NCBI GenBank assembly: GCA_009843785.1
Contig: VYCT01000369.1
Coordinates: 3,655 to 67,654 of the forward strand
Length of the DNA stretch: 64,000 nucleotides
From: Candidatus Poribacteria bacterium
Lineage (GTDB): Bacteria; Poribacteria; WGA-4E; WGA-3G
Direction: 5' to 3'
Made by a program: the position numbers and the translations under genes. The notes below the pieces were generated by a model, which worked only from the letters and a program-made list of their open reading frames with translations, did not search any database and was not told the DNA's origin. The first letter of the stretch is position 1, and each line of letters begins with the position of its first letter. Shown here one piece after another: positions 1,109 through 61,957 of this stretch.

Positions 1109-1156
1109 AGCACAAAAATTCTCTCTCTACCTCACAGTTTGAGGAAGGCACGGCTT

Positions 1157-15639: not shown

Positions 15640-15662
15640 ATTTGCCACAAGAGGAAATACAG

Positions 15663-16976: not shown

Positions 16977-17012
16977 GGCGTATGGGATGTCGAACACAAT
17001 TATGAACTCCAA

Positions 17013-37572: not shown

Positions 37573-37587
37573 TTGTGTTTTTACCTC

Positions 37588-38688: not shown

Positions 38689-38703
38689 TCCTCCAATAGA
38701 ACG

Positions 38704-41700: not shown

Positions 41701-43155
41701 CAAAAAACGCAGCCATTCTTCGCATCTACTCTCAAACCAGTTATTGTCTTGCTTTTCCAGCCAACCCAACACTTGGCTGATCCCTATTTCTCTCACCCCT
41801 GCCTCACGCATTACCTTAAAGCACCGACGAAACTCTTCCGTTTCTCCTATTTCAGGATGTAACCAACCGCTGTTCGGATACAACCAACGACTTTCAACCA
41901 ATTCTCGCAAGGACTCACGGTGTGGATAAAATACGTTCTCAGCTTTTGCATACCCACCGTCTTGTGTTGGTACAAAAACTCTTTCTTGCATTGCTTTTTG
42001 TAATGCGTCAGCAATAGGTTTAAACTCATTTTCCACTTCGCCTTTCAGAGGTAATATATTGAAAAATGCTGGTTCAAGTAAATCGTTTACCTTCAACTGT
42101 TCCAAAATTTTAGGGAGAAATTTAGCCGTTTCCTGCACTAACCATTTATTCCATGGATTTTCACTTGGATCTTGGATATCCGCACGTCCTGATGTTGTCT
42201 GATACCGTGCCTGAATGAGGAATTTCAGGTGTGTCTCTTTCTGCGTAGGAAGATAAGCGAATAGGACAGAGTTATCATCCATTGCTGTGATACTACCGTC
42301 ATGCAGTTTGAACGCGATTTCAATTGGTTGTTGTTTTTTCGCTGATTGCTGAATTTTCTGTCGTTTTTCGTCATGTTTAGTCTGTTTTAAAAGCGCATCA
42401 ATCACATTTTCTGGTGGTTGAACCGCCTTGTGGAAAACGAGGAACATCTCTGATAATTGATTTTCACCATTCAGGGACATTGTCAACTCAACTTCAGACG
42501 CGTCCTGAATCTTACTATGAGGATGATGGATACAAGAACAAATTCCAGTTCGACCCTCACGCTCATCAATCCATCTAATTGTTTTGAAGTCTTTTTTGAA
42601 ATCTCGTTGGAGATCACGTAGGAATAACAAAACATACCTCTCACCTAATTTGCAGAACTGATCTTTCAAGAGCACGATGTCTTCCTGGCTCAGATCATCT
42701 TTAAAAGGCAGGCGGAAGACTGTTCGACCTTGGCTAACTTGTTCTACAATTTGCGGTGTTGTCTTATCAATGCCTTCAGGCTGCGTAAGATCTCGGATAC
42801 GAAAATGTTCATCGTCAGAGTATATTTCTGGGCAATCTGTGTAGTTGTAAACCGACTTGAAACCGATGCCAAAAGTCCCAATTTGCGTTAAGTCTTTACT
42901 ACTTGAACCTAATGAACAGATGCTACGTACATCTTTTTCGCTGAACTGATCCCCATCGTTCCAAACGAATAGTTCATTCTCTCCTAATCGCAGTTCCAAT
43001 TGAGAACTTTTGCTGTCAACAGCGTTCTGGATAAACTCATAGACGAAATGCGTTTTTTCTTTGTAAAGTTGTTCATAGAAGAAGCGACGGTACTCTGGAT
43101 CTGAGCCGTAGCGCACTTGGTTTTCTTCAGCTATCTTTTTGTAATCTGTTGCCAT
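38704..43155 (-). CDS. NO VEIN/sacsin-like GHKL ATPase with C-terminal DUF3883 (NOV_C, restriction-endonuclease-like) domain, 1483 aa
   Basis: N-terminal Bergerat-fold motifs FVYEFIQNAVDS, WNDGDQFSEKD and IGTFGIGFKSVY. C-terminal GMKHAREYEEE...GYDLHS...RYIEVKA...LTSNEW....DYFLYIV is typical of DUF3883. An acidic/Ser-rich linker lies at 39067-39420. Confidence 0.75.
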   Translation of the reverse strand: MATDYKKIAEENQVRYGSDPEYRRFFYEQLYKEKTHFVYEFIQNAVDSKSSQLELRLGENELFVWNDGDQFSEKDVRSICSLGSSSKDLTQIGTFGIGFKSVYNYTDCPEIYSDDEHFRIRDLTQPEGIDKTTPQIVEQVSQGRTVFRLPFKDDLSQEDIVLLKDQFCKLGERYVLLFLRDLQRDFKKDFKTIRWIDEREGRTGICSCIHHPHSKIQDASEVELTMSLNGENQLSEMFLVFHKAVQPPENVIDALLKQTKHDEKRQKIQQSAKKQQPIEIAFKLHDGSITAMDDNSVLFAYLPTQKETHLKFLIQARYQTTSGRADIQDPSENPWNKWLVQETAKFLPKILEQLKVNDLLEPAFFNILPLKGEVENEFKPIADALQKAMQERVFVPTQDGGYAKAENVFYPHRESLRELVESRWLYPNSGWLHPEIGETEEFRRCFKVMREAGVREIGISQVLGWLEKQDNNWFESRCEEWLRFLYVYLNSQNSELGRIKRLPLVRLENGRHVSTNYKLVFFPPDTDEGREDLKPFLMDLPILQSILLKGEEGNDIKAFLGKLDVRISNSEEMISKWIIRQYRWSDKPSKEQNRLHVRYIFRVWNELSGNEHRQLREELSKVSILLAYNSRQPETYDFVKPCDIYLPKAYTGNADLETYFSVSNSDIWFVDDTYLENDSNRRDWLQFLKAIGAMDIPCVIEKNISAKSENDQAFNKELSKRNVELERTTWGLQTNIKDFNFPGLSEALVEISDHKKINLSHVLWHLLVKRVKPLPSGEWNRQTFFDNHFRGIYRWYFRKNQSKLFDATFYCQLKETAWIPDEHGKLHTPSKCFAPTDGNRRVLGESVAYLHPDFDISQDNEAARWLAEKLGIHLNANTDSVLNYLQTLSGTEVSVEKVEPLYRFLARQDARRSEEFKQKPLIFTSNPEPNWWKAHEVFWKDESPVFGNHCGYLIDDYEETLKGFFIGLGVLEGAAPSHYVRVIQKIASVGKTEDVNVRERVKILYHRLWQALREGGSFLVNEDWWKEWGQVLKDKCWLGEEGDKWDFFCLRELVWKDDDYRSRLFMEEHIPFWSFDGDLLEFAKQHLRIEGCCEASDVEFNCSGEQREDRILSEKVRNLRPYIHDFLHSQRLCQGHEVKKSAEILDRMSVCRTEKLEVEYTLREFRAPDPNPRQSFLDERNQTLWLGLEEDEKAYPDLIGDALQDYFRIDQLREFVKDLLSAVNLSNTALLSWKRRGFQPNCCLLPPESDSKEDEENASESVDEKCSCETGSEDDLRPNDSDVGTPTIHEEPETGSENNDSTENEFETSTSQSHPGGSRTRSRGGKGINTPNRNRDTSHSSGRSGGTEDDTHMVETSTSPHDRKEIEHIGMKHAREYEEERERTVKDVSTKNLGYDLHSTAPDGKNRYIEVKARAYRDPVLLTSNEWSVAQELKDDYFLYIVLNAATQPELYIIQNPTDKVSPMEDVRYQVPLSEITAHGIPV

Positions 43156-47522: not shown

Positions 47523-48308
47523 ATGAAATCCATTATAACGCGATTAGCGATCATCACCATCAGTCTCAGCCTGATCTTCACAGTACATACGTATGCGGAG
47601 ATCGATTTTAGCACTGCAAGAGGCATTTGGCTACTTGATGAAGGTGATGGTAATGTTATCAACGATATGTCTGGAAACGAGAATCACGGTGAACTTCAAG
47701 GCGGAGAATGGGTCGAAGGGCCTGATGGGCCTGCCTTAAGTCTAAATGGACAAAATGACCGGGTGATCATCGCAGACTCCGATAGTTTGTATCTCGAAGA
47801 GGCATGGACGATTACTGCTTGGGCTTTTGTGAATACAACCGAGACCGGTTTTGGACATATTCTCGGCAAAAGACCCGCATCTGGAACCGTGGCGAATTAC
47901 GCGTTCAGGACAAGCGGCAGTGGCACTGGCTGGGAAGCTTACTATGCACGAGACGGTTGGAAAGGTGCCTGGAATCAAGGTTCAGTCAAGAAAGGTGAAT
48001 GGTTGTATATGACGGCAACATACGACGGAACGGATACCATTAAAATCTATGAAAATGGCACTGAAATCGGTTCCGTTGGCGGGATGGGTGCACCGGCTCC
48101 CCGGAATGACACCGAGGTCAACATTGGCGGTTGGACTGACAACACTTCAGAGACACTTGACGGTATGCTCGCTCAGGTCGCGCTTTTCAGTGTCGCCTTG
48201 GCGGAAGAAGATATAAACACCCTGATGGAGGACGGGCTGTCATCCTTAGCGGCTGTTGAGCCTTCTAACAAACTCGCAACGACGTGGGCAAACATCAAAT
48301 CTCAATAA
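47523..48308 (+). CDS. Secreted LamG (laminin-G_3 / ConA-like lectin) domain protein, tandem paralog 1
   Basis: Signal peptide MKSIITRLAIITISLSLIFTVHTYA. GNENHGELQGGEWVEGPDGPALSLNG..DRV, W.ITAW and LDG.LA.VALF are typical of LamG_3. The tail is VEPSNKLATTWANIK. Confidence 0.75.
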   Translation: MKSIITRLAIITISLSLIFTVHTYAEIDFSTARGIWLLDEGDGNVINDMSGNENHGELQGGEWVEGPDGPALSLNGQNDRVIIADSDSLYLEEAWTITAWAFVNTTETGFGHILGKRPASGTVANYAFRTSGSGTGWEAYYARDGWKGAWNQGSVKKGEWLYMTATYDGTDTIKIYENGTEIGSVGGMGAPAPRNDTEVNIGGWTDNTSETLDGMLAQVALFSVALAEEDINTLMEDGLSSLAAVEPSNKLATTWANIKSQ

Positions 48309-48436: not shown

Positions 48437-49219
48437 ATGAAATCCATTATAGTTTGCTTAGCGATCATCACCCTCAGTCTGACCTTCGCCGTACATACTT
48501 ATGCGGAGATCGACTTTGAAACCGCAAGGGGTATTTGGTTACTCGATGAAGGCAAAGGCGATGATATCGAAGATATTTCGGGCAACGACAACCACGGTGA
48601 ACTTCAGGGCGGTGAATGGGTCAAAGGTCCTGATGGGCCTGCCCTCAGTTTAAACGGCGTAAATGATCGGGTTATTATTCCGGACTCCAAGAGTTTGTAT
48701 CTCGAAGATGCGTGGTCAATCACTTCATGGGTATATGTCAACAAATCCGAGAACGGTTACGGACATATCCTCGGCAAAAGACCCGCAGCGGGTACGATAG
48801 CAAATTACGCATTCAGGACAAGCTCCAGCGGCGCCGGCTGGGAAGCTTACTTTGCAAACAACGGTTGGAAAGGTGCCTGGAATCAAGGAAATGTGAAAAA
48901 AGATGTCTGGTTGTATATGACCGCAACTTATGACGCAAAAGACACCATTAAAATCTACGAAAATGGTGTCGAAATCGCGTCTGTTGGCGGGATGGGTAAA
49001 CCGGGTCCCCAAAACGACACGGATGTCAACATCGGCGGTTGGACCAACAACACTTCGGAGACGCTTGACGGTATACTCTATGAAGTCGCACTCTTCGATT
49101 CCGTACTGGCAGAAGACGATATAAATGAGCTGATGGAGAAGGGGCTCGTAACACTCATGCCTGTTGAGCCTTCTGGCAAACTTGCCACGACATGGGCAAG
49201 CATCAAATCTCGGCAATAG
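48437..49219 (+). CDS. Secreted LamG domain protein, tandem paralog 2
   Basis: Collinear with 47523-48308 along the whole length, including the RBS region AATTCAACCTGTAGGAGgGAAAAATG. The tail is VEPSGKLATTWASIK. Confidence 0.75.
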   Translation: MKSIIVCLAIITLSLTFAVHTYAEIDFETARGIWLLDEGKGDDIEDISGNDNHGELQGGEWVKGPDGPALSLNGVNDRVIIPDSKSLYLEDAWSITSWVYVNKSENGYGHILGKRPAAGTIANYAFRTSSSGAGWEAYFANNGWKGAWNQGNVKKDVWLYMTATYDAKDTIKIYENGVEIASVGGMGKPGPQNDTDVNIGGWTNNTSETLDGILYEVALFDSVLAEDDINELMEKGLVTLMPVEPSGKLATTWASIKSRQ

Positions 49220-49297: not shown

Positions 49298-50446
49298 ATG
49301 ACCGAACATATTGAACGCGCAAGAACATTGAACCGTCAAGCATGTGACGACGTTGACCACGGACGGCTTGATGCGGCGAAAGTTGCCTTAAATGAAGCCA
49401 TTCGTCTCGCACCTGATTTGGCAGCACCGCACACTAATTTGGGTGTCTTGCACTGTTGGGAAGGTGCGTTAGACAAAGCCATCGGTTTACATCTTAAAGC
49501 ACGTCGCCTCGATCCGAACCTCTCAGCACCGCACACGAATCTTGGTGTCGTTTATGCGTGGCAGGGGAAACTTGACGCAGCATTTCAATCGCTTCAGACA
49601 GCACTCGAGTGCAATCCAGACGCCGCTGAGGCATATACGAACTTAGGGTTCGTCTATATCTCTCAGGGGAAGCTTGATGCCGCGATAACCGCATCAAAAA
49701 AGGCAATTCAACTTGGCGATGGTGGAGAAGCACAACTCAACCTCGGATTGATTTATAGTTGGCAAGGACGGTTCGATGAAGCCATTGAACTTTACCAAAA
49801 AGCACTTGATACCGACCCAACGCTGACGGAACCCCACAACAACCTCGGACTCGTTTATCTGTTGCAAGGTGAACTTGCGCGTGCTATTGAGGCATTCAAG
49901 ACTTCAATTAAACTCGATGGCGGTGAAGAACCGCATACAAATCTTGGACTCGTGTACAGCTGGCAAGGAAAACACGACGAGGCAATCGCGTTGCACAAGG
50001 CAGCACTGGATATGGCACCTGATTCAGCAGAAGCGCAGATCAACCTCGGTTTCGTTTACATCTGCCAAAATCGGCTTGATGAAGCAAAGGTTATGTTAGA
50101 AGGCGCACTCCGCAGTGACCCAGATTCCGGAGAAGCACATACCAACCTCGGCATTATCCTTTTCCACGAAGGCAGCATTGAAGCGGCTGTTGCTGCATAC
50201 AAAAAAGCCGGAGCAATGGCTGAAGCGCGCAACAACCTTGGCATCGCCTACTATCAACAAGGCAAACGTGATGCTGCAATCGCTGAGTTCAAAGCGGCGA
50301 TTGCAGCCGAAGATTTACAGGAAGCACATACTAATCTGTCAATCGTGACGGGTAGTGTAGGAAATATAGACACGTCAGAACTCCTGACTTCGCCAATTGG
50401 CGTGCCAGTCGGTGTCCCGGCTGTATGGTGTGAATTCGTCAATTGA
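49298..50446 (+). CDS. TPR-repeat protein (about nine 34-aa repeats)
   Basis: Recurrent HTNLG-hydrophobic-Y..QG+LD.AI..... units. ATG 49298 is preferred to the ORF-track TTG at 49274. Confidence 0.8.
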   Translation: MTEHIERARTLNRQACDDVDHGRLDAAKVALNEAIRLAPDLAAPHTNLGVLHCWEGALDKAIGLHLKARRLDPNLSAPHTNLGVVYAWQGKLDAAFQSLQTALECNPDAAEAYTNLGFVYISQGKLDAAITASKKAIQLGDGGEAQLNLGLIYSWQGRFDEAIELYQKALDTDPTLTEPHNNLGLVYLLQGELARAIEAFKTSIKLDGGEEPHTNLGLVYSWQGKHDEAIALHKAALDMAPDSAEAQINLGFVYICQNRLDEAKVMLEGALRSDPDSGEAHTNLGIILFHEGSIEAAVAAYKKAGAMAEARNNLGIAYYQQGKRDAAIAEFKAAIAAEDLQEAHTNLSIVTGSVGNIDTSELLTSPIGVPVGVPAVWCEFVN

Positions 50447-50501
50447 AAAACTAACGCTATACCAACATGCCTCGCGCGACACTATATTTTTGGAAAGAAC
50501 T

Positions 50502-51785
50502 ATGACACAATTGCCCAACGTCCTTCTTATTCTCGCTGACGACCACGGTTATGGCGATATTTCGGCACACAACGGTCCCGCAATCCAGACCCCGAATATT
50601 GACCGGATCGCTGAACACGGAACACGGTTTACCAGATTTTACGCGAACTCTTCGGTCTGTTCGCCAAGCCGGGCATCTCTCATGACCGGACGCTATCCCG
50701 ATAGGGTCGGAGTGCCAGGTGTGATTCGCACCCATCCAGAAAACAGTTGGGGGTACTTCCGACAGGATGCAGTCACGCTCCCTGCAGCCTTAAAACCCAA
50801 AGATTATCGGACGGCACTCATCGGTAAGTGGCACCTTGGACTCGAACCGGAGAATCACCCTTGCAAACGCGGATTCGATCATTTTCACGGTTTCCTCGGC
50901 GATATGATGGACGACTACTACACACACCGCAGACACGATATCAACTACATGCGGCACGGTTTGGATACCATTGATCCGAGGGGCCACGCGACAGACCTCT
51001 TTACAGAATGGAGTATGGACTTCATTCGCGCAGAAGCACAGTCGTTTGACCCTTTTTTTCTTTATCTTGCCTACAACGCGCCGCATACGCCGATCCAACC
51101 CCCAGATGAATGGATTGCGCGGATCCAGGAACGCGAACCCGATATTTCACCGCAACGCGCAAAATACATCGCGCTTGTCGAGCACATGGACGCTGGCATC
51201 GGACGCGTCCTTGATACGCTTGAAGACACTGATCAATTGTCGAATACGCTCGTTATCTACACATCTGACAACGGCGGTGCAATGAACGTTGGTGCCCACA
51301 ACGGTCCCTTGCGCGGGCAAAAAGGTGAGATGTACGAAGGCGGCATCCGAGTCCCGACGTGCGCGATGTGGCCTGGGTATATCCAAGATGGACATGTTAC
51401 GGATCAGGTTGCGCTGCTCATGGATCTGTTTCCGACAATCTGTGAAGTGGCGGGCGCGTCAATTCCCGAAGGCATCGAAGGACGCTCAATGTGGCAGACG
51501 CTGCAAGGCGAACAGCAGGATTTCTCGGAGCGTATCCTCTATTGGCTACGCAGAGAAGGGGGACAACGCTTTCTCGGACAGTGTCAACATGCCATCCGGC
51601 GTGGAGACACGAAATTGTTGCACAACAGTCCCTTTGAACCCTTGGAGCTCTACAATCTGTCAGACGACCCACTGGAAACAACGGACAACGCACAGACGGA
51701 GACAGCACTCTTCAGAGAAATGAGTCAGCTATTTCAAGCAGAAACACAGAAGGCAGGGAGTGTGCCTTGGCAACGAGGAAATTAG
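50502..51785 (+). CDS. Arylsulfatase (Cys-type, formylglycine-dependent)
   Basis: PNVLLILADDHGYGD, CSPSRASLMTGR (C-x-P-x-R FGly motif), GKWHLG and YTSDNGG. ATG 50502 is preferred because the longer start overlaps the TPR gene. Confidence 0.85.
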   Translation: MTQLPNVLLILADDHGYGDISAHNGPAIQTPNIDRIAEHGTRFTRFYANSSVCSPSRASLMTGRYPDRVGVPGVIRTHPENSWGYFRQDAVTLPAALKPKDYRTALIGKWHLGLEPENHPCKRGFDHFHGFLGDMMDDYYTHRRHDINYMRHGLDTIDPRGHATDLFTEWSMDFIRAEAQSFDPFFLYLAYNAPHTPIQPPDEWIARIQEREPDISPQRAKYIALVEHMDAGIGRVLDTLEDTDQLSNTLVIYTSDNGGAMNVGAHNGPLRGQKGEMYEGGIRVPTCAMWPGYIQDGHVTDQVALLMDLFPTICEVAGASIPEGIEGRSMWQTLQGEQQDFSERILYWLRREGGQRFLGQCQHAIRRGDTKLLHNSPFEPLELYNLSDDPLETTDNAQTETALFREMSQLFQAETQKAGSVPWQRGN

Positions 51786-51797
51786 GAGGATATTATT

Positions 51798-52697
51798 TTG
51801 AAACAACAAAACGGACCTGAAGTATCAGAACCGGACGACACTTTCGGCATGCACATCAACTCGCAGAGCGCAGATACCAACAATACAATTAAACGCGTAC
51901 ACAAACACGGCTATGCTACCCTTCACGATGCTGCGCGAGACAATGCCTATGAAGCAGTGGCAGCGTTGGTAGAAAATGGGGCCGATGTCAACGCAGGCGA
52001 CCAATATGGCTATCCACCTTTGCACTGGGCAGCGTGGCACAACGCTTATGAAGCGGCAGCAGTGTTAATAGAAAATGGGGCCGATGTCAACGCAACGAAT
52101 GATAAGCATTTTGCCCCGTTACACTGGGCAGCGTGGAATAATGGACACGAAACAGCAGCGGTGTTAATGAAAAATGGAGCAGATGTTAGCGCGAGGAACG
52201 CAGATGGAGACACGCCACTGCACTGGGCAGCATGGCGCAATGTCTATGAGGCTGAAGGCGTATCGCTCGAAAGCAACACAAACATCAACCCGAGGGACAA
52301 ATCGGGTTATACCCTTCTGCACTGGGCAGCATGGCGTAACGCCTATAAAACAGCGGAAATCCTCATCGAAAATGGGGCTGATACGAACGCAGCGAATAAC
52401 AGAGGCCTCACGCCGCTGCACATCGCAGCCGAGGATGATACCGCTGAAGTCGCGAGGGTATTGGTAAAAAATAGCGCACAGGTTAACATAAAGGACAAAA
52501 ACGGCGATACACCGCTGCATATCGCAGCAGCACACAATGCATACGAGACAGCCGGAGTCCTGCTTGAAAACGGTGCAGATACCAGCACAGCGAACGATAA
52601 GGGTCATACGCCTTTGCATATCGCAGCAGAAAAGAAGGCACACGAAACGGTCAAGGTACTCTGTGATCACCGAGAGCAAAAGGGCTGGTCATGGTAA
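51798..52697 (+). CDS. Ankyrin-repeat protein (about 7-8 repeats)
   Basis: Repeated G.TPLHWAAW.NA.E.A..L.ENGADVNA units. TTG start with an AGGAGG RBS 8 nt upstream. Confidence 0.85.
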   Translation: MKQQNGPEVSEPDDTFGMHINSQSADTNNTIKRVHKHGYATLHDAARDNAYEAVAALVENGADVNAGDQYGYPPLHWAAWHNAYEAAAVLIENGADVNATNDKHFAPLHWAAWNNGHETAAVLMKNGADVSARNADGDTPLHWAAWRNVYEAEGVSLESNTNINPRDKSGYTLLHWAAWRNAYKTAEILIENGADTNAANNRGLTPLHIAAEDDTAEVARVLVKNSAQVNIKDKNGDTPLHIAAAHNAYETAGVLLENGADTSTANDKGHTPLHIAAEKKAHETVKVLCDHREQKGWSW

Positions 52698-52792
52698 TCG
52701 TCTTTCTATCCAGCAAAAGCATCACACCCAGAAATACTTACCAAAAAGCTGCATATATACACCACCGATGACCGAAGGAGGGAAAGAGACAG

Positions 52793-54388
52793 ATGGGTAA
52801 AGTTGTTGGTATCGATTTGGGAACAACGTTTTCAGCCATCGCACACATTGACGAACATGGAGAGCCAGAGATTATACCGAACGCCGAAAATGATCGGATG
52901 ACCCCTTCGGTGGTTATGTTTGAAGAGGACCTCGTCACGGTTGGGAAAATCGCCAAACAGAACGCCAGGGCAGTCCCCGAACAAATTGTCGAATTCGCCA
53001 AGCGCGAGATGGGAAAATCAAAAGAGACGTTTTTCCGCACCTTTGATGACAAGAACTATTCACCCGAAGAACTCTCCGCGCTGGTTTTGACGAAACTCAA
53101 ACAGGATGCCGAAGCCTATCTCAATACCGAAGTCACCGATGCTGTTATCACTGTTCCCGCCTATTTTCGCGATGCTGAACGTGAAGCCACACGCAACGCC
53201 GGTAAAATTGCTGGGTTGAACGTCTTGCAAGTATTGAACGAACCGACGGCGGCCGCGCTCGCTTACGGAATAGATCAACTCGGCACCGACCAGAACGTAT
53301 TTGTGTTCGACCTTGGCGGTGGCACATTCGATGTCACCCTTATGAGAGTCTCCCAATCCACGATACAGATGCTCGCGACGAACGGTGATCACAGGCTCGG
53401 TGGTAAAGATTGGGACGATAAAATTATTACCTATGTCGCCGAGATGTTTGAGATTGAACACGGCGAAAACCCATTACAGGACCTTCACGCGTACCAAGAC
53501 CTTCAACTTAATGCAATCGGCGCGAAAGAGTCTTTATCAAGGCGAGAAATCGCACGTATTGTTTGTGGATATAACGGTAAAACAACACTTGTAGAATTGA
53601 CGCGTGAAAAATTTCAGGAACTCACTGCAGAACTCCTCGAGAGATGCCGAGTCCTCTGCGACGTAGTCCTCTCTGAAGGCAACATGACATGGACAGATAT
53701 TGACACCGTACTGTTAGTAGGTGGATCCACCCGGATGCCAATGGTGCGAGAGATGATTGCCAACATGAGTGGTAAAGAGATCAACCCCAATGAAATCAAT
53801 CCTGACGAAGCTGTTGCTCTCGGTGCAGCGATTCAGGGGACACTCCGTCAAATCTCTGAAGGCGATGCGGCAACAGCAGATGTGTCTGACGCGGTTATCG
53901 AACGGTTCATCGGACCGGACGGCGCGCCTAAAGTGACCGTGACCGATGGTGCCACGCATAACCTTGGGCTTGTTGTGCTTAACACAGCGCGCGAGTCTAT
54001 TATTCACGTCATGATCCCGAAAATGACCGCCGTCCCCTGTGAGATGGCAGACCAGTTTGGAACAGTAGAAAACAACCAAGGTTCGGTCTTGATTGAGGTT
54101 GTCCAGAGCCTTGAACAGGATCAACGCAAGGCTGAGATAGACCTGTTTGACCAATATAAATTGGGTGAATGTACCCTTGAACTCCCGCCAGGGCTACCAG
54201 AAGGATCGCCGATTCATGTTACTTACAAATACAACTTAGACCAAGTACTTGAGGTGACAGCAAAATCCCTTAGTAGGGCTGGCGCAAGAGCCGTTTATGA
54301 TGTCTTTACCATCATTAAGCGACCGACGCTTGACGATGATAGCGTTGCAAAGGCGCGAACAGATCTACAAGATTTGACAGTTGAGTAA
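52793..54388 (+). CDS. Hsp70-family ATPase lacking the C-terminal helical lid
   Basis: VGIDLGTTFS, VITVPAYF...NEPTAAALAYG, VFDLGGGTFDV and LLVGGSTRMPMV form an intact actin-like NBD. A beta-sandwich SBD-like region follows (NQGSVLIEVVQS...GSPIHVTYKYNLDQVLEVTA). The protein ends at 531 aa, with no SBD-alpha or EEVD. Confidence 0.85.
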   Translation: MGKVVGIDLGTTFSAIAHIDEHGEPEIIPNAENDRMTPSVVMFEEDLVTVGKIAKQNARAVPEQIVEFAKREMGKSKETFFRTFDDKNYSPEELSALVLTKLKQDAEAYLNTEVTDAVITVPAYFRDAEREATRNAGKIAGLNVLQVLNEPTAAALAYGIDQLGTDQNVFVFDLGGGTFDVTLMRVSQSTIQMLATNGDHRLGGKDWDDKIITYVAEMFEIEHGENPLQDLHAYQDLQLNAIGAKESLSRREIARIVCGYNGKTTLVELTREKFQELTAELLERCRVLCDVVLSEGNMTWTDIDTVLLVGGSTRMPMVREMIANMSGKEINPNEINPDEAVALGAAIQGTLRQISEGDAATADVSDAVIERFIGPDGAPKVTVTDGATHNLGLVVLNTARESIIHVMIPKMTAVPCEMADQFGTVENNQGSVLIEVVQSLEQDQRKAEIDLFDQYKLGECTLELPPGLPEGSPIHVTYKYNLDQVLEVTAKSLSRAGARAVYDVFTIIKRPTLDDDSVAKARTDLQDLTVE

Positions 54389-54478
54389 CCCGAATTACTA
54401 ACATATAATAGCGTTTCTGGTAGCAGCAATTTATGATTTCAATTCTCAACACCTTTGCATACACACAAGGACTACAGT

Positions 54479-55699
54479 ATGTCCAAACGCGATGAATTCA
54501 TTACAGTTATCCGCACACTGAAGGCGGCTTCGCCGACCATTACTGACAAACAACGCATCGGGCTTCTCCAACAAGCCACCCAGAATTACGGGCTTTCTGC
54601 TCAGGAAGCCACCGAAATTCTGAAAGATTTAGATTTGGTTGTCGGCGAGGGGGTAAACTACTTTGACGTTTTGGGATTTTCGATTGAAGAGATCCAAAGC
54701 CTCAACGAGAATGCCATCGTCAATCTCGTTGAGGCTGCTCACAAGAAACGCTATAGCGCGTCGTTACGCGCAGGTGGACGCATCCGATCTGATGGCAAAA
54801 CAGAAGAACAGTGGCGGACTCTTTTGAATCGAGCATGCGATACCCTCAAAAATCCTCAACAGAGACGAAAACACATCGATTCACTTAAAAACGAGAGACA
54901 CGCACGACACACTGAATTAACAGGTTCAGTACCTGATGACATGGCACTCATCCCGGCAGGTGAGTTTCTCATGGGCAGCAATGACGACGAAGCCCACAAA
55001 GACGAAAAACCGGTGCATACCGTTTATCTCGATGCATTCTATATGGACATACACCCAGTAACCAATGCACAATACAAGGCATTTGTGGATGCAAATCCAC
55101 AGTGGAGCAAACCGGAGATGCTCACAGAACACATTTGGACAAAATACCACGATGGCTATTACCTACATCATTGGTATACAGATAACTATCCTTTCATAAT
55201 AGGTGACCATCCAGTTGTTCATGTCAGTTGGTATGCGGCGATGGCTTATGCGCAATGGGTAGGTAAACGGCTGCCAACAGAGGCAGAATGGGAGAAGGCA
55301 GCACGTGGTGGGTTAATGAACCAAAAATACGCGTGCGGAAATTCAATAGATGAAAGTAAGGCGAATTATGGTAGAAATGTTGATGAAACTACGCCTATAG
55401 CGAAGTATGCTGAGAACGGCTACGGTTTGTACGATATGACAGGTAACGTATTTGAGTGGTGTTTGGATAAATGGGATAAGAATTTCTATAGGTCTTCGCC
55501 ACGCAACAACCCCGTTTCCGACCATAGCATAATAGGTATCATAAACAATTTCACAAAAACCAAGGCGTTTCGTGTCTTGCGTGGAGGCTCTTGGTATAAT
55601 AAAGTACACAACGTGCGCGTTGCTGCTCGCACCGCGGCACACCCAACGTACGCGAACAGCCACCTCGGTTTTCGTTGTGTGATGGATGTGACACCTTAA
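54479..55699 (+). CDS. J-like domain / FGE-sulfatase-fold (SUMF1/PvdO-type) fusion protein, paralog 1
   Basis: NYFDVLGFS...KKRYSASLRAGGRIRSDGKTEEQWRTLLNRACDTLKNPQQRR is J-like without HPD. PAGEFLMGS, EKPVHTVYLDAFYMD.HPVTNAQYKAF, HPVVHVSWY.AMAYAQW.GKRLPTEAEWEKAARGG, GNVFEW, RVLRGGSW and LGFRCV indicate an FGE-sulfatase fold. Confidence 0.8.
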   Translation: MSKRDEFITVIRTLKAASPTITDKQRIGLLQQATQNYGLSAQEATEILKDLDLVVGEGVNYFDVLGFSIEEIQSLNENAIVNLVEAAHKKRYSASLRAGGRIRSDGKTEEQWRTLLNRACDTLKNPQQRRKHIDSLKNERHARHTELTGSVPDDMALIPAGEFLMGSNDDEAHKDEKPVHTVYLDAFYMDIHPVTNAQYKAFVDANPQWSKPEMLTEHIWTKYHDGYYLHHWYTDNYPFIIGDHPVVHVSWYAAMAYAQWVGKRLPTEAEWEKAARGGLMNQKYACGNSIDESKANYGRNVDETTPIAKYAENGYGLYDMTGNVFEWCLDKWDKNFYRSSPRNNPVSDHSIIGIINNFTKTKAFRVLRGGSWYNKVHNVRVAARTAAHPTYANSHLGFRCVMDVTP

Positions 55700-55775
55700 C
55701 TCTTCATTCATTTACCATTTTTGCCATTTTTGATATGCTCGCAAATCCGAATAATGCTTAGAAAAGGAATAACAC

Positions 55776-57077
55776 GTGTCCAAACGTGAGGAATTTATAG
55801 CATTTATTAACACACTCAAAACGGTTTCACCGGCTATTACGGATGAACAACGGATTGGACTCCTCAGGCAGGCAGGACAACAGTACGGTCTTACTGTAGA
55901 TGCGGCGACTGAAATTTTGAAAGCATCGGGTTTAGTTATTGGTCAAGGTGTAAACTATTTTGAGGTACTCGGGCTTTCAATCGCAGAAATTCAAAACCGA
56001 AGTGAAACGGGCATCACAACTCTCGTTGAGACAGCACACAAAACACGCTATAGCGCATCGTTACGTGCCGGTGCTCGCCTCCGACCAGACGGTAAAACAG
56101 AAGAGCAGTGGCGGATGCTTTTGAATGAAGCACGCGATACCTTGATAGATGCCAAAAGACGACGCGAACACATCAACGCACTCGAACACGATGAAGCCGA
56201 CATATCTGTAGAAGAAAATGTGGATATCCTTCTCAAATCCGCTGACATCCCTGAAACTATGATTCAGGAATTAAGACACAACGGTGTTACAAGTGATGTT
56301 GATGCCCCTGCTGACATGGTATTCATCCCGGCGGGTGAGTTCCAGATGGGAAGTAGGGACGAGAAGGCAAGCGATAGTGAAAAGCCCGTACATACTGTTT
56401 ACGTTGACGCATTTTACATGGATAAATATTTGGTAACCAACGAACAATACAAGGCTTTTCTGGACGAAAACCCGCAATGGCGCAAGCCACAATTGTTCAA
56501 AGATCGTATCCCTACCGAGTATCATGACGGTGCCTATTTGAACCATTGGGACAGAACCACTTATCCAAAAGGGGAAATCTATCATCCCGTTACGAAGGTA
56601 GGCTGGTATGCAGCGATGGCATACGCGCAATGGATAGGCAAACGGCTTCCAACGGAAGCAGAATGGGAAAAAGCTGCACGCGGTGGCTTGGACGGAAAAC
56701 AATACCCTTGGGGCGATGCAGTAGATCTGAACAAGGCAAATTACGCTTATAATGCACATGGAACCACCCCGGTTGGACGCTACCCCGCGAACGGGTACGG
56801 TCTACATGACATGAGTGGCAACGTCTGGGAATGGTGCCTCGATGCGTATGACGCGGACTTCTATATGAATTCGCCGCGTCGGAACCCGTTTTCCGGTACG
56901 AACACCCCGGAATGGGTAACAGCCAATTTTAGAAGCATTCAATCTGCTCGCGTGTTGCGCGGCGGTTCTTGGCTGATGGATCCGCAAGGTATCCGAGTTG
57001 CTTACCGATTTAGAGGGAGTCCATCAGACACACACTCCGCCTTTGGGTTCCGTTGTGTCATCCCCATGAATCCTTAA
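55776..57077 (+). CDS. J-like domain / FGE-sulfatase-fold fusion protein, paralog 2 (GTG start)
   Basis: Same architecture: NYFEVLGLS...KTRYSASLRAGARLRPDGKTEEQWRMLLNEARDTL, PAGEFQMGS, RLPTEAEWEKAARGG, RVLRGGSW, FGFRCV. Confidence 0.8.
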   Translation: MSKREEFIAFINTLKTVSPAITDEQRIGLLRQAGQQYGLTVDAATEILKASGLVIGQGVNYFEVLGLSIAEIQNRSETGITTLVETAHKTRYSASLRAGARLRPDGKTEEQWRMLLNEARDTLIDAKRRREHINALEHDEADISVEENVDILLKSADIPETMIQELRHNGVTSDVDAPADMVFIPAGEFQMGSRDEKASDSEKPVHTVYVDAFYMDKYLVTNEQYKAFLDENPQWRKPQLFKDRIPTEYHDGAYLNHWDRTTYPKGEIYHPVTKVGWYAAMAYAQWIGKRLPTEAEWEKAARGGLDGKQYPWGDAVDLNKANYAYNAHGTTPVGRYPANGYGLHDMSGNVWEWCLDAYDADFYMNSPRRNPFSGTNTPEWVTANFRSIQSARVLRGGSWLMDPQGIRVAYRFRGSPSDTHSAFGFRCVIPMNP

Positions 57078-57145
57078 ATTTCTACTGCTTCATGCCTTCG
57101 GATCCGCTTGCGAATTCAGCATATCACTAAAAGGTAAACAGAGAC

Positions 57146-58483
57146 ATGTCCAGACGCGATGAGTTCATTACAGTCATCAACACATTTAAAACTGTCTCAC
57201 CAACTATTACGGATGAACAACGTATCGGACTCTTGAGACAAGCCGTTCAGAATTATGAACTTTCTATCGAGGAAGCCTCTGAAGTTCTGACGGCTTTGGG
57301 CTTGGTTGTCGGAGAAGAGGTAAACTATTTTGAGGTTTTAGGTTTTTCAATTGAAGTGATTCAGAAGTTAGATGAAGACGCTATTGTGAGTTTAATTGAG
57401 ACGGCTCATAAGAAATTTTATAGCACGTCGTTGCGTGCCGGTGCTCGTGTCCGTCCAGATGGCAGAACAGAAGAACAGTGGCGACACATCCTGAACCAAG
57501 CGCGCGATACTTTGAAAGATCCGGAAAAAAGAGAAGAATACCTCACAACCCTAACATCTCAGGAAGATGTCCATGAGAAGACATCCCTCGACACAGAACC
57601 CATATCGATAAACACACCTGAAACTGATGCAGCGTCAATACTTTCAGTAAACACATTGCAGCATGCGGAGCCGATGGCGCCAGCGACACCTGAGATCATC
57701 TCTGCACCAACACTTTCAAATGTTAATGTACCTGCTGACATGGTCATCATTCCTGCAAGTGAATTTCTGATGGGAAGCAATGACACAGACGCAAATAACA
57801 GTGAAAAGCCTGTCCATCCTGCTTACATTGACGCATTCTTTATCGATAAACATCTGGTGACCAACGCGCAATACAAAGCATTCCTTGATGCCAACCCACA
57901 ATGGCAGAAAGGCAATATGCTGACGGACTATCACAACGGTAATTATCTGAGAACTTGGAATGGAAACAACTATCCTACGGATAAAGCGAATCACCCTGTT
58001 GTGTATGTAAGTTGGTACGCAGCGATGGCTTACGCGCTATGGGTAGAAAAGCGTTTACCAACGGAGGCGGAATGGGAAAAAGCTGCACGTGGTGGCTTAA
58101 CTGGCAAAAAATATCCGTGGGGAGATCAGATTGACACGACAAGAGCAAACTACGGTGAGAACATTGGACAGACAACGCCTATCGGTGAATATCCGCCTAA
58201 TGATTATGGTCTGTATGACATCGTGGGTAACGTGTGGGAATGGTGTATTGATGAACATATTTTGGATTTTTATGCCAATTCACCATACCAAAATCCGATT
58301 GCTGACAATGATATAAACTACGTGCTTACCAATTTTACAACTCTTAAAACTTACCGCGTGTTACGCGGGGGTTCTTGGATGAGCATACCCCGGTACGTAC
58401 GCGTTGCCCCGCGTTTCAGATTTTCGCCCGCACACTCGATTCACAACGTCGGTTTTCGCTGCGTAAGGACTATCTCTCTTTAA
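57146..58483 (+). CDS. J-like domain / FGE-sulfatase-fold fusion protein, paralog 3 (longest linker)
   Basis: NYFEVLGFS...KKFYSTSLRAGARVRPDGRTEEQWRHILNQARDTLKDPEKREEY, then a Pro/Thr/Ser linker, then PASEFLMGS, RLPTEAEWEKAARGG, RVLRGGSW and VGFRCV. Confidence 0.8.
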   Translation: MSRRDEFITVINTFKTVSPTITDEQRIGLLRQAVQNYELSIEEASEVLTALGLVVGEEVNYFEVLGFSIEVIQKLDEDAIVSLIETAHKKFYSTSLRAGARVRPDGRTEEQWRHILNQARDTLKDPEKREEYLTTLTSQEDVHEKTSLDTEPISINTPETDAASILSVNTLQHAEPMAPATPEIISAPTLSNVNVPADMVIIPASEFLMGSNDTDANNSEKPVHPAYIDAFFIDKHLVTNAQYKAFLDANPQWQKGNMLTDYHNGNYLRTWNGNNYPTDKANHPVVYVSWYAAMAYALWVEKRLPTEAEWEKAARGGLTGKKYPWGDQIDTTRANYGENIGQTTPIGEYPPNDYGLYDIVGNVWEWCIDEHILDFYANSPYQNPIADNDINYVLTNFTTLKTYRVLRGGSWMSIPRYVRVAPRFRFSPAHSIHNVGFRCVRTISL

Positions 58484-58543: not shown

Positions 58544-58572
58544 TTGACAGTATAATCTTTATCTGGTATAAT
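58544..58572 (+). promoter_or_regulatory. Consensus sigma70-type promoter TTGACA-17 nt-TATAAT
   Basis: TTGACA at 58544-58549 and TATAAT at 58567-58572, about 105 nt upstream of the GH95 start. Confidence 0.65.
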
Positions 58573-58681: not shown

Positions 58682-60979
58682 ATGACAAACACAGATAATC
58701 TTGTTTTATGGTATCAGAAACCAGCCGAAGCATGGACAGACGCGCTCCCCCTCGGAAATGGGCGGCTCGGTGCTATGGTGTTCGGCGGCGTAGAACGCGA
58801 ACGCATTCAACTCAACGAAGATACCCTTTGGGATGGCGGCCCCCGAGATACCAATAATCCAAAGGCTTTGGCAGCACTCCCGAAGGTGCAACAACTCCTT
58901 TTCGAGGATAAAAATGAAGAAGCAACGCAACTTGCCGGAGAAACGATGCTCGGAGTCCCCGAACGCATCAAATCCTACCAGTCTCTCGGCGATCTGTTCC
59001 TCGAATTCTCACACAAGGGTGCAACACACTATCGCCGCGAACTTGATTTAAACACCGGCATCGCAAAAACAGCATATCGCTGCGGCGATGTCACTTTCAC
59101 AAGAGAAGCCTTCGCGACAGCCGTAGATAACCTCATCGTTATCAGAATCGAAGCTGACGCGACCGAACACATCGGTTTTGATATAACGATGACACGCGAA
59201 CAGGATGCCAGCGTCGAAGCAATCGCCGCCAATATCCTTCGACTTGACGGACAGTGTGGCGATGACGGGGTACGGTTTTCAGCCTATCTACAAGTGCATA
59301 CCGAAGGCGGAAAAGTCGAGTCAACAGGAGATAGCCTGTCTGTCAATGGTGCCGATGCTGTTACGCTCTTTCTCTCCGCGGCAACCAGCTACGTCCATCA
59401 GACGGATACAAGCGGAAATCCACACGCGCTTTGCGAAAATTATCTGACAAATATTGATACAAGACCTTATGCAGATATTCGGGACGATCACATCGCTGAA
59501 CATCAATACTTCTTCCAACGCGTTGATTTAGACCTCGGCTCCACAGAGGCAGTTAATCTCCCGACTGATCAACGGTTAACTGCAGTCAAAGCAGGTGCGT
59601 CAGATCCAGCACTCATCGTACTTTATTTTCAATATGGACGCTATCTGCTGATGGGAAGTTCGCGACCCGGGTGCCTCCCCGCCAATCTGCAAGGCATCTG
59701 GAACGAGCACATGAACGCACCTTGGAACAGCGATTTCCATACCAATATCAACCTCCAAATGAACTATTGGGTCCCCGAAATTTGTAACCTCCCGGAGTGC
59801 CATACCCCCTTGTTTGACTACATGGACACACTCGTTGAACCGGGGAACCGGACAGCCAAAATCCATTACGGTGCTGATGGCTGGGTCGTTCACCATCTCT
59901 CTGATATTTGGGGTTTCACAACGCCCGCTGATGGTATTTGGGGGATTTCGCCTGTCGGTGCTGCATGGTTATGTGAACATGTGTGGGAACACTACCTTTT
60001 CGGCGGTGATAAGGATTTTCTGATTGAACAAGGTTACGCCTTGATGAAAGGTGCCGCTCGCTTCATGCTCGACTTCCTCGTTGAAGCCCCGGAAGGCACA
60101 CCTTTTCCTGGGAAACTCGTCACCAATCCGTCGCACTCACCGGAAAATAGCTTTCTGAAACCAGACGGCACGCGCTCCCTCTTCACCTATGCCGCAACAA
60201 TCGATCTGGAAATTATACATGAACTCTTCACGAACTGCATCGCTTGCATTGATGTCCTCGGAGAAGATGCGGAATTCCGCGCTGAGTTGGTCTCCGCTTT
60301 AGAACGGCTTGCACCGCTCCAGATTAGCGAAAAAACAGGACGACTACAGGAATGGGTGTTCGATTATGACGAACCGGAGCCGGGGCATCGGCACATGTCG
60401 CACATGTATGGCCTCCATCCGAGTTGTCAGATTACACTGCGCGGGACACCTGAACTGGCAGCGGCTGCTAAGAAATCGTTGGAATATCGGCTGGCACACG
60501 GCGGCGGACACACAGGGTGGAGCCGCGCATGGCTCATCAACTTCTGGGCGCGACTTGAAGATGCTGAAGAGGCATACACCCATCTCCAGGCACTTCTCGC
60601 GAAATGCACCTTGACGAACCTGTTTGATACACATCCACCGTTCCAGATTGACGGCAATTTCGGCGGAGTCTCCGGTATCGCGGAGATGCTGCTACACAGC
60701 CACGCCGGTGAGATTCACCTACTCCCCGCACTTCCGAAGGCATGGCGCACCGGACACGTCAAAGGCTTACGCGCCCGCGGCGGCTTTGAAGTGGATATGG
60801 CATGGGAGAATGGACAACTCACTGACGCACGACTTTATTCCACCTTAGGAAATGACTGTACTGTCCGAACAACAACTTCCGTTAGGGTGACATGTGACGG
60901 TCAATCGGTTGACACAGCGCAATCGGATTCGGTTATAACGTTTGGAACCGAGGCAGAGAAAACATATATCTTGGCGTGA
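58682..60979 (+). CDS. Glycoside hydrolase family 95 (alpha-L-fucosidase type)
   Basis: The N-terminal [42 protein letters not shown] is the hallmark GH95 start. The length (765 aa) and the NLQGIWN and [11 protein letters not shown] blocks also fit. Confidence 0.85.
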
Positions 60980-60985
60980 GTCTGT

Positions 60986-61957
60986 TTATATGGATAAACG
61001 GGGTTGATCGCTATACTGTTTAATCCGTTCCTCCGCGAGCGTAATATACTTTTCCTCAATATCGTAACCGATATAATGGCGTCCCGATTTTAACGCACTC
61101 AAACACGTCGTGCCGCTGCCACAGAACGGATCCAAAACGACATCGCCAACGAAGGTATAGAGCTGGATTAACCGATGTGGCAGTGCCTCAGGAAAAGGCG
61201 CGGGATGTCCGATACGTTTCGCTGAAACAGCAGGAAACGTCCAGACGCTTTTTGTCCACTCCAAGAAGTCCTCTTTACAGATTGAATTCTCTTTTCCGTT
61301 GCGTTTTCGAGAGAAGGCATCTTTGGAGAAAACGAGGATGTACTCATGAACGTCTCTCAGCACCGGATTCGCCGCCGATAACCAACTGCCCCACGCCGTT
61401 GAACTCCCGGCACTTGAGGCTTTGTCCCAAATGATTTCACCCCGCATGTGATAGCCTATCGCTAACATGTCTTCTATGATGTAACTATGCAATGGGATGT
61501 AGGGTTTCCGACCTAAGTTGGCAATATTAATGCATGCCCTGCCGCCAGTGACCAATTTCTTATAGGTCTCGGCGAAGACAGCGTATAGAAGCTCTCTATA
61601 TTCCGCGAGCGACAGATCATCGTCATATTCCTTTTTGGCATTGTAAGGCGGGGACGTAACCATCAAGTGGACGCTTGCGTCCGGGATTTCGGACATCTGT
61701 GCGCTGGACGCACAATAGAGTCGATCAAGGTTTTCAGCAGGGATCGGGTTTTCAATCCATTCATCAGGCTCCGGCGGCTCCTGATCAGCGTAGAGCTTGC
61801 TCCCATAAAACGCACTCGCATCGAGATTAATTCTGCCGGATGTTCCAAACGCGCTCGTTTGCGTGCCATCTTTCCTGTTTTTACGATTACGTTCCATACG
61901 CTTTCTACCTGCGTTTGTCTGTTTTTTAATACTGGTCTGGAACCCAGAAGATGACAT
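60986..61957 (-). CDS. Beta-class DNA methyltransferase (N4-cytosine or N6-adenine; SPPY motif)
   Basis: Motif IV MVTSPPYNAKKEYDDD precedes motif I VLDPFCGSGTTCLSA, which is the beta-class order. The start is either 61957 (32-nt overlap with the GNAT gene) or the internal ATG at 61897. Confidence 0.8.
   Translation of the reverse strand: MSSSGFQTSIKKQTNAGRKRMERNRKNRKDGTQTSAFGTSGRINLDASAFYGSKLYADQEPPEPDEWIENPIPAENLDRLYCASSAQMSEIPDASVHLMVTSPPYNAKKEYDDDLSLAEYRELLYAVFAETYKKLVTGGRACINIANLGRKPYIPLHSYIIEDMLAIGYHMRGEIIWDKASSAGSSTAWGSWLSAANPVLRDVHEYILVFSKDAFSRKRNGKENSICKEDFLEWTKSVWTFPAVSAKRIGHPAPFPEALPHRLIQLYTFVGDVVLDPFCGSGTTCLSALKSGRHYIGYDIEEKYITLAEERIKQYSDQPRLSI

Follow-up and report, generated by a model that had tools for sequence, protein, structure and literature searches.

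The DNA described here comes from a Candidatus Poribacteria bacterium (assembly GCA_009843785.1, contig VYCT01000369.1), and the stretch that was analysed, called the window below, comprises 64,000 nucleotides at positions 3,655-67,654 of the forward strand. There are four genes on its plus strand, all oriented in the same direction, wherein a gene for a short Hsp70 is followed by three paralogous genes for proteins that are called adaptors here. Together they may well encode a dedicated chaperone that acts through a set of specificity adaptors. An earlier reading made from the letters alone (the sequence-only reading) had described four co-directional genes, and all four are present in the list of open reading frames (ORFs) of the window. 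The spacing of 69-88 nt that it reported has to be corrected, since the successive gaps from hsp70 to adaptors 1, 2 and 3 measure 90, 76 and 68 nt. There are no terminator-like sites on the plus strand between the four genes, which are as follows.

52793-54388, + strand: Hsp70, 531 aa (Pfam HSP70, E=4e-122)
54479-55699, + strand: adaptor paralog 1, 406 aa from an ATG (the start in the ORF list is an upstream TTG at 54455)
55776-57077, + strand: adaptor paralog 2, 433 aa, GTG start (FGE-sulfatase, E=5e-67)
57146-58483, + strand: adaptor paralog 3, 445 aa (FGE-sulfatase plus weak DnaJ and HscB matches)

The Hsp70 matches positions 1-489 of the 599 positions in the Pfam HSP70 profile, and the early end of this match indicates that the helical lid is missing. 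The protein consists of a nucleotide-binding domain (NBD), a 26-aa insert (aa 354-379), the linker VTVTD and a beta-sandwich substrate-binding domain (SBD), after which lid helix A just begins. The beta-sandwich is present, as the alignment with DnaK reaches through beta-8. By alignment with DnaK and with the orthologs, the alpha-helical lid (about residues 509-605 of DnaK) and the C-terminal tail are absent, and the point at which the protein ends, 19 residues into lid helix A, is common to the orthologs. There are at least 120 matches to this Hsp70 in a protein search, and among those listed all are at least 71% identical. Residue counts (n=119) were taken from an alignment with E. coli DnaK and 118 orthologs, wherein ortholog lengths range from 515 to 550 aa and are mostly 523 or 531-532 aa. 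The suspicion that the short Hsp70 is an assembly artefact, raised along with the sequence-only reading, is ruled out by this shared length class and end point in 119 orthologs. The five ATPase residues equivalent to D8, K70, E171, D194 and T199 of DnaK are invariant in 119/119 sequences and, together with the Pfam match, they bear out the earlier description of a 531-aa Hsp70 with intact NBD motifs, an SBD and no lid.

Several features distinguish this protein from DnaK. Subdomain IB carries a 19-residue deletion, the insert of 26 residues precedes the linker, and the hydrophobic linker VLLLD of DnaK is replaced by VTVTD. The position of DnaK Arg167, which is the partner of DnaJ Asp35 in the DnaK-DnaJ pair, is occupied by Gln in 117/119 orthologs (Gln146 in the window Hsp70). 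Several acidic residues that are presumably J-domain contacts in DnaK are also lost in the orthologs. The scores are below the NCBIfam cut-offs for both DnaK (420 vs 648 bits) and HscA (328 vs 709 bits). A canonical DnaK is found in the Poribacteria genome L027, is 642 aa long and 60% identical to E. coli DnaK, and retains Arg167, an ILLLD linker and the lid. As judged from these alignments, the 531-aa protein is an additional, specialised Hsp70 paralog rather than the product of a damaged dnaK gene.

The three adaptors are mutually 59-60% identical and have one layout, in which a three-helix N-terminal domain is followed by a degenerate J-domain, a hypervariable linker and an FGE-fold domain that Pfam FGE-sulfatase recognizes in all three (E=1e-62 to 5e-67). 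Alignment and Pfam thus agree with the layout of N-terminus, J-like segment, variable linker and FGE fold that had been read from the sequence. The parts are located as follows.

54650-54889, + strand: J-like domain of adaptor 1 (aa 58-137, motif IRSDG), preceded by the N-helical domain (aa 1-57)
54935-55681, + strand: FGE-fold domain of adaptor 1, after a short linker
55947-56186, + strand: J-like domain of adaptor 2 (motif LRPDG)
56310-57059, + strand: FGE-fold domain of adaptor 2, after a 41-aa linker
57317-57556, + strand: J-like domain of adaptor 3 (motif VRPDG)
57734-58468, + strand: FGE-fold domain of adaptor 3, after a 59-aa linker

The N-helical domain, formed by the first 57 residues, is predicted to be a three-helix bundle (predicted local distance difference test, pLDDT, 90.9). 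Foldseek gave no specific structural relative for it, and in other proteins it is found on either side of the J-like domain. For the adaptors, NCBIfam and PADLOC yield no assignment to a family that is more specific than the generic FGE fold. Adaptor 3 is the positional ortholog of the last adaptor ahead of a GH95 glycoside hydrolase gene in relatives.

There are several lines of evidence that the J-like segment is a true but degenerate J-domain. An AlphaFold2 (AF2) model of adaptor 2 (aa 2-150, pLDDT 83.7) contains helices I-IV with an antiparallel II/III hairpin, and the 17 best Foldseek matches of this model in the PDB are all J-domains, with probabilities up to 1.0; for targets that consist of little besides the J-domain, the TM-scores per J-domain length are 0.44-0.69. 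When compared by hhalign with a small alignment of canonical J-domains, the family scores 95% probability (E=4e-8), and R103-x-D105 of the adaptors is superposed on H33-P34-D35 of DnaJ. A family profile from a longer alignment (A2) finds Jac1 (0.007) and HscB first among PDB sequences, and a profile of the trimmed module (A3) finds HscB alone (E=0.39). The family HMM, searched against 1.84 billion representative proteins, returns 133 proteins, of which the weakest include the Pfam-positive DnaJ proteins P0264, P0272 and P0274. The J-domain-like segment claimed in the sequence-only reading is therefore upheld by AF2 with Foldseek, by hhalign and by the reach of the family HMM.

Where canonical J-domains have the HPD tripeptide, the adaptors have R-[PASV]-D-G, and the helix II-III loop that holds it is also longer. 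R103 and D105 are invariant in 168/168 unique adaptors and G106 is present in 167/168. Helix II has a net charge of ~0 vs +4 in DnaJ. Because HPD is missing, classical stimulation of the ATPase should not be assumed. There are two cases in which the J-like domain is fused in frame, N-terminally, to an Hsp70 of this family (L063:7735-9528 and L069:5722-7629). The fusion proteins, 597 and 635 aa long, come from different assemblies and have different linkers, and the second came to light in the genomic surroundings of P0203. When the J-like::Hsp70 junction was used as a protein query, solely short fragments that span one half or the other were returned. By the Rosetta-stone argument, these fusions indicate that the J-like domain works with this Hsp70. 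Moreover, both partners differ from the canonical pair at the presumed interface (HPD to RxD and R167 to Q), and these differences suggest a private J-Hsp70 pair that would be insulated from the housekeeping DnaK and DnaJ. Conserved synteny and the fusions lend indirect support to the idea that the J-like domain could stimulate the ATPase of its partner.

The FGE-fold domains have been compared, in one alignment with 168 adaptors, with the enzymes of T. curvata and S. coelicolor. Their best PDB matches are FGEs, and TvpA (PDB 2y3c), PorK and SUMF2 are also among the matches. In true FGE the CxPxR motif of the substrate is contacted by F38, W84, F86, W109, Y273 and S290 (PMC6676471). In the adaptors F38 is deleted together with most of the W84/F86 segment, L stands in place of W109, and Y273 and Arg276 are variable; S290, as T or S, is the sole sulfatase-motif contact that is kept. 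The Cu(I) ligand C269 of the T. curvata enzyme sits in a 3-residue deletion and C274 is replaced by P, A, E or V. True FGE activity is therefore rejected because both copper-binding cysteines are lost. Recognition of the sulfatase motif, and with it any sulfatase-related reading, is weakened by the deletion or replacement of the residues that bind it. Judged by these residues, the adaptor FGE-fold domains are most reasonably regarded as binding modules, not enzymes.

Variability within the adaptors is unevenly distributed. Column entropy is lowest in the N-helical and J-like parts, at 1.3 bits, and peaks in the linker at 3.1 bits. The FGE domain has a conserved scaffold with variable patches at approximately residues 194-200, 236-248, 359-392 and 400-424 of adaptor 2. 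In true FGE the peptide groove is lined by the F38 loop (matched by patch 194-200), by the W84/F86 segment (patch 236-248) and by the Cys loop with the S290 segment (patch 400-424); patch 359-392 was assigned to none of the groove elements. Being non-catalytic and variable, the domains are what would be expected of binders, as the sequence-only reading had proposed. That reading was also right that such domains, named FGS, had been put forward as invader sensors (Kaur et al. 2020, PMC7159879).

A diversity-generating retroelement (DGR) was considered as a source of this variability and was rejected. There is no repeat resembling a template/variable repeat (TR/VR) pair, and no TR-like copy of the adaptor 3' ends is present in the 51-61 kb region, although reverse transcriptase was not specifically searched. 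The repeats that do occur in this region are at the level of the paralogs (62-80% identity). Adaptor diversity is thus encoded as germline paralogs.

The adaptor family is nearly confined to Poribacteria. There are 29 proteins in a protein search with the adaptor N-module, two of which carry a source name, and this is Candidatus Poribacteria. A scan of one genome per GTDB species with the same module as query and 10-kb flanks found 59 loci, nearly all labelled Poribacteria and three labelled 'uncultured bacterium', the latter being MAGs of sponge type. In JGI metagenomes the adaptor module is nearly absent, with 5 loci. The common frame is sulfatase-[GrpE]-Hsp70-(J-like adaptor)xN-GH95. The Hsp70 (at least 70% identical) is located immediately upstream within the captured stretch in 46/59 loci, and most of the loci without it are far ends of arrays that exceed the 10-kb flank. 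The unit of Hsp70 with J-like/FGE genes, for which the sequence-only reading had suggested a gene-neighbourhood comparison, is hence conserved in 46/59 Poribacteria loci, and this linkage is close and of ancient date. A sulfatase gene is found upstream in 36/59 loci, GrpE is encoded in 26/59 and GH95 follows downstream in 25/59. There are 1-8 adaptors in the 19 fully captured arrays and at least 9 in partly captured ones.

There is no GrpE gene in the window. However, the last 14 grpE codons remain at 52756-52797, where 'YTPPMTEGGKETDG*' matches the GrpE C-terminus 'RYTPSIGEKGGKTDG' of L002, and this remnant overlaps the hsp70 start just as grpE does in relatives. GrpE is ancestral to the locus and was lost in the window lineage. 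The earlier statement that no GrpE and no DnaJ gene is nearby consequently holds for the window, although it reflects a lineage-specific loss, since GrpE lies upstream of hsp70 in relatives. The proposal that the machine is self-contained without GrpE is ancestrally wrong, given that a dedicated GrpE is encoded in 26 loci and has been deleted here.

The order of events can be partly reconstructed. An ankyrin-repeat gene is present at 70-93% identity in the GrpE-less clade to which the window belongs and is a clade-specific addition. L007 and L028 have the order sulfatase-ankyrin-GrpE-Hsp70, and the retention of both genes indicates that the ankyrin gene was already in place when the window's clade lost its GrpE by deletion. 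GrpE was also lost, independently, in another clade (L031, L038, L054). The ankyrin gene of the window is itself built of 99-nt periodic repeats. There is also a variant locus, GrpE-Hsp70(533 aa)-J-like with His at the DnaK Arg167 position, at 1-417 and 7468-10771 of L070. This 61-kb contig encodes a Rep3-type plasmid replication protein, and thus this variant may be plasmid-borne.

Within this stable frame the adaptors turn over much faster than the Hsp70. In the closest genomes the Hsp70, sulfatase and GH95 are 87-97% identical to those of the window. The FGE domains of adaptors 1 and 2 are often just 57-68% identical there and occur in mosaic combinations. For example, L010 has adaptor 1 at 95% and adaptor 2 at 62%, and L004 has the reverse. 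The median identity between paralogs of one locus is 51%, and the arrays include insertion sequences and truncated adaptor copies.

The C-terminal domain is also exchanged. There are 271 complete ORFs that start with the J-like module, of which 228 end in FGE and ~20 in a WD40 propeller; in the remainder the C-terminus is a helical domain with ankyrin repeats, TPR, transmembrane segments or an HNH nuclease. FGE is carried by 19 and ankyrin by 11 of 67 longer representatives, and a few have WD40, HEAT, PG-binding/SH3 or PEGA. The J-like module is thus a general coupling device. The three adaptors reported for the window do exist, although this is a low copy number compared with relatives that have up to at least 9, some with WD40 or ankyrin instead of FGE.

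Other architectures that involve the same modules were also seen. WD40 beta-propeller genes at 15642-17642 (+ strand) of the window are ~26% identical to the WD40 that replaces FGE in related adaptors, and they lack a J-like module. In L003:10001-10735 (P0022) the N-helical and J-like domains are fused to an HNH-nuclease-like C-terminus, and there is no Hsp70 in the surrounding 20 kb. There is a second, larger type of Hsp70-centred locus on the Poribacteria metagenome contigs L063 (2638-16899) and L069 (1-15892). This contains several Hsp70 paralogs, Hsp70 fused or adjacent to vWA, GrpE, an Hsp70 of the 531-aa type and the J-like::Hsp70 fusion. It also encodes stand-alone J-like proteins, J-like-ankyrin proteins, membrane-anchored FGE proteins and WD40.

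The four genes of the window are preceded by genes for a TPR protein, a Cys-type sulfatase and an ankyrin-repeat protein and are followed by genes for a GH95 hydrolase and a DNA methyltransferase, as assigned by Pfam. The immediate neighbours are as follows.

50397-51785, + strand: Cys-type sulfatase with a CSPSR motif, left flank (Pfam Sulfatase, E=3e-63)
51798-52697, + strand: ankyrin-repeat gene, 299 aa, downstream of the sulfatase gene and upstream of hsp70 (Pfam Ank families, E=1e-51)
52756-52797, + strand: remnant of the grpE 3' end, overlapping the hsp70 start (translated match to the L002 GrpE C-terminus)
58682-60979, + strand: GH95 glycoside hydrolase, right flank (Pfam GH95, E=1e-173)

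The sulfatase, a conserved left flank, is only a possible member of the Hsp70 system. A perfect sigma-70 consensus (-35/-10, 12/12 positions) is found at 58544-58572, solely after adaptor 3 and before GH95, and by this match the GH95 gene probably has its own promoter.

Farther away, an N6/N4 DNA methyltransferase gene (60986-61957, - strand) lies directly after GH95, and no adjoining restriction-enzyme partner was identified. An islet of low GC content (~0.42 vs ~0.49 elsewhere) at 36595-43155 (- strand) encodes, besides a C5 cytosine DNA methylase and a 1483-aa protein with Sacsin/NOV_C domains, a HindVP-type restriction endonuclease (E=1e-126). It has the appearance of a defence islet, and the distance from it to hsp70, which lies downstream, is ~9.6 kb. 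At 1139-4867 (+ strand) there is a gene for a 1242-aa protein with an adenylate/guanylate cyclase domain, an AAA_16 (STAND-like) ATPase and TPR repeats. Two tandem paralogs at 47523-48308 and 48437-49219 (+ strand; 261 and 260 aa) have apparent signal peptides and Laminin_G_3, a concanavalin-like lectin domain.

We lean towards a Poribacteria-specific mechanism in which a dedicated Hsp70 is served by specificity adaptors. The lid-less, ATPase-competent Hsp70 would be the engine and the tandem array would supply specificity. Perhaps each FGE-fold domain binds one particular ligand, be it a peptide, a protein or a glycan, by way of what is the substrate groove in true FGE. The J-like domain would then dock on its cognate Hsp70, wherein the change of Arg167 to Gln would make the pair private. 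Docking might commit the Hsp70 to ATP-driven clamping, so that the captured target is held or remodelled; alternatively, the target could be the adaptor's own linker, which would serve as a switch. GrpE would reset the cycle where it is present. The array would constitute a germline repertoire of specificities that is rapidly exchanged between strains. For the docking, the control of the ATPase, the orthogonality, the nature of the ligand and the biological role, these are the forms that we infer.

The purpose of such a system might be the surveillance or neutralisation of foreign molecules from phage or host. This role is favoured by the choice of C-terminal domains, the conserved engine with its diversifying binders and the strain-level turnover, which resemble the systems of Kaur et al., and by that analogy we propose it only tentatively. 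The fullest version would be an unrecognised immune-like class, in which Hsp70/GrpE and an orthogonal 'RPD-type' J-domain operate germline arrays of hypervariable FGE, WD40 and ankyrin receptors, a chaperone-driven and antibody-like repertoire that recognises and neutralises phage or host molecules. It would, in addition, be the first re-engineering of a J-domain/Hsp70 interface (HPD to RxD with R167Q) that insulates a private chaperone circuit. This version we regard as doubtful.

Several observations weigh against the adaptor mechanism or its role in conflict. The sequence-only reading had suggested Pfam searches, and these found HSP70 and FGE-sulfatase; however, the isolated adaptor N-termini do not reach the DnaJ threshold (PF00226) in a search at E<=10, the best value being 0.064 for paralog 3. 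The HPD motif, which is normally essential for J-domain function, is absent, and the module could tether the Hsp70 without stimulating it. GrpE was lost at least twice, and hence the cycle may differ from the classical one. There is no toxic effector in the window locus. None of the defence models in PADLOC-DB 2.0 matches the adaptors; the Hsp70 has a marginal match to PDC-M61B (E=1e-4), and the ankyrin matches reflect repeat composition. No relatives of the adaptor module were found among the viral contigs of IMG/VR, and a phage origin is rejected on this basis. The locus is located in stable synteny between metabolic genes (sulfatase and GH95) and is not obviously a mobile island. Finally, some of the truncated adaptors may be long-read assembly errors rather than pseudogenes.

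A different mode of action would be that the R-x-D-G domain binds Hsp70 and does not activate it. The Hsp70 would then hold the adaptors inactive as clients through their hypervariable linkers, and ligand binding or titration of the chaperone by stress or infection would free them for sequestration or oligomerisation. The absence of HPD and the long, disordered, hypervariable linker are compatible with such a switch. Thresholding by a chaperone is moreover the logic proposed for MoxR-vWA systems (PMC7159879), and lid-less DnaK-like domains have been proposed as sensors of misfolded proteins in EACC1-protease fusions (PMC12642450). Nevertheless we consider it unlikely, because the R103/D105/G106 loop is invariant and its D aligns with the catalytically essential D35, the catalytic residues of the Hsp70 are all conserved, and a dedicated GrpE in most lineages implies real nucleotide cycling. 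Even less can be said for chance adjacency, meaning a truncated dnaK pseudogene beside unrelated FGE-family genes. The sub-threshold Pfam DnaJ score is all that speaks for it, and the Hsp70 length and end point conserved in 119 orthologs, the synteny in dozens of species-level genomes and the existence of J-like::Hsp70 fusions leave it with hardly any credibility.

The remaining alternatives retain a chaperone function and assign it other clients. One is that the FGE-like domains recognise nascent Cys-type sulfatases and that the J-like domain hands these to the Hsp70, which would keep them unfolded for formylglycine modification or export, with the array matching the diversity of the numerous Poribacteria sulfatases. 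The adaptor domain is indeed an FGE homolog, a Cys-type sulfatase with the CSPSR motif is the conserved upstream neighbour in 36/59 loci, and the non-catalytic SUMF2/pFGE associates with sulfatases. Against such an escort, the copper cysteines and the CxPxR readers (F38, W84, F86, W109, Y273) are lost and these segments are the most variable, sister adaptors bear WD40, ankyrin, TPR or HNH in place of FGE, and adaptor turnover is far faster than that of the flanking sulfatase, and we hold this explanation to be quite improbable. The adaptors might also belong to the arsenal of 'eukaryote-like proteins' of a sponge symbiont, in which case the Hsp70 would be their folding or secretion escort and the host, not phages, would drive diversification. 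This would fit a family that is restricted to sponge-associated Poribacteria, C-terminal domains that are typical eukaryote-like repeats, and an ankyrin gene that was recruited into the locus. It is very improbable in our estimation, as inspection of the sequences reveals no signal peptide in the adaptors and no secretion-system gene in the locus, and the J-like::Hsp70 fusions argue for an intracellular machine.

If the preferred mechanism of an Hsp70 engine with private adaptors is true, the J-like domain and its Hsp70 (HPD to R-x-D with Arg167 to Gln) would be a natural insulated pair, which would bear on how J-domains signal to Hsp70 and could be used for orthogonal chaperone engineering. 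Bacteria would also have made, out of the principle of one motor with many adaptors, a locus-encoded repertoire of specificities that diversifies rapidly. The locus would also be a chaperone-centred addition to the prokaryotic systems that sense through non-catalytic FGE/lectin-fold domains. It is a phylum-specific, conserved feature of a dominant, uncultivated sponge symbiont whose phage and host interactions are of ecological interest, and the claims are directly testable with recombinant proteins.

There is no paper in the literature search that links Poribacteria with FGE domains, nor one that describes an Hsp70 with J-like-FGE adaptors. Among the closest known systems is HscA-HscB (Ssq1-Jac1) for Fe-S cluster transfer, in which a dedicated Hsp70 paralog has a dedicated J-protein whose C-terminal domain brings one specific client, and HscB and Jac1 are also the best PDB sequence matches of the J-like profile. 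However, that pair has retained HPD (in HscB) as well as the lid and canonical linker (in HscA), its single adaptor lacks an FGE fold, and no isc genes are near the window locus. HscC of E. coli is reportedly another extra Hsp70 paralog, linked to its own J-proteins DjlB/DjlC and insulated from DnaK/DnaJ. These J-proteins are said to have canonical HPD J-domains and membrane anchors, and no lectin fold, tandem diversification or dedicated GrpE. Pam16/Tim16 have the J fold with a degenerate HPD and regulate or tether Hsp70 rather than stimulating it classically. They differ from the adaptors, wherein R-x-D-G is itself invariant, the Asp is retained and the contact residue of the partner Hsp70 is changed. 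These observations suggest an interface that is re-tuned rather than dead.

SUMF2/pFGE, TvpA (2y3c) and PorK/GldK resemble the adaptors in using the FGE/C-type-lectin fold as a binding scaffold without formylglycine chemistry, and the title of a preprint (bioRxiv 10.1101/2021.05.21.445229) describes FGE-like proteins as type VI secretion system (T6SS) immunity proteins. No J-like domain is fused to any of these binders, and none of them has a link to an Hsp70. Hsp70 without lid helices is also known from a putative immune context, as lid-less DnaK-like domains are fused to EACC1-protease defence modules, for which FGE domains are listed as protease-fused sensors (PMC12642450). In those modules the chaperone forms a fusion with a protease and a pore-forming effector, whereas the Poribacteria Hsp70 is free-standing and has neither.

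The systems of Kaur et al. 2020 (PMC7159879), which are themselves computational predictions, include ternary MoxR-vWA systems whose effectors are FGS domains, and others that combine a GAP1-N2 GTPase with HSP70, GrpE and FNIII-DnaJ. There, FGS domains were proposed to bind invader molecules without acting as enzymes, and repeats that form superstructures (WD40, TPR, ankyrin, HEAT) were described alongside them as a kind of effector. The likeness lies in an NTPase chaperone whose partner proteins carry a co-chaperone domain N-terminal to variable binders or effectors, in diversification between close strains, and in one theme that pairs HSP70-GrpE with a DnaJ fusion. The window locus differs in that it has no MoxR, vWA or GTPase, although a vWA-Hsp70 variant exists in L063 and L069, and in that its coupling domain is the R-x-D-G J-like domain. 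The Poribacteria diversity is furthermore one of tandem germline paralogs and not of a DGR, and the system is restricted to this phylum. Thus, specialised Hsp70s with dedicated J-proteins and the non-catalytic FGE fold as a binder are both of known kinds, and it is their combination, along with the RxD/R167Q interface, the diversifying arrays in tandem and a distribution restricted to one phylum, that appears to be new to description.

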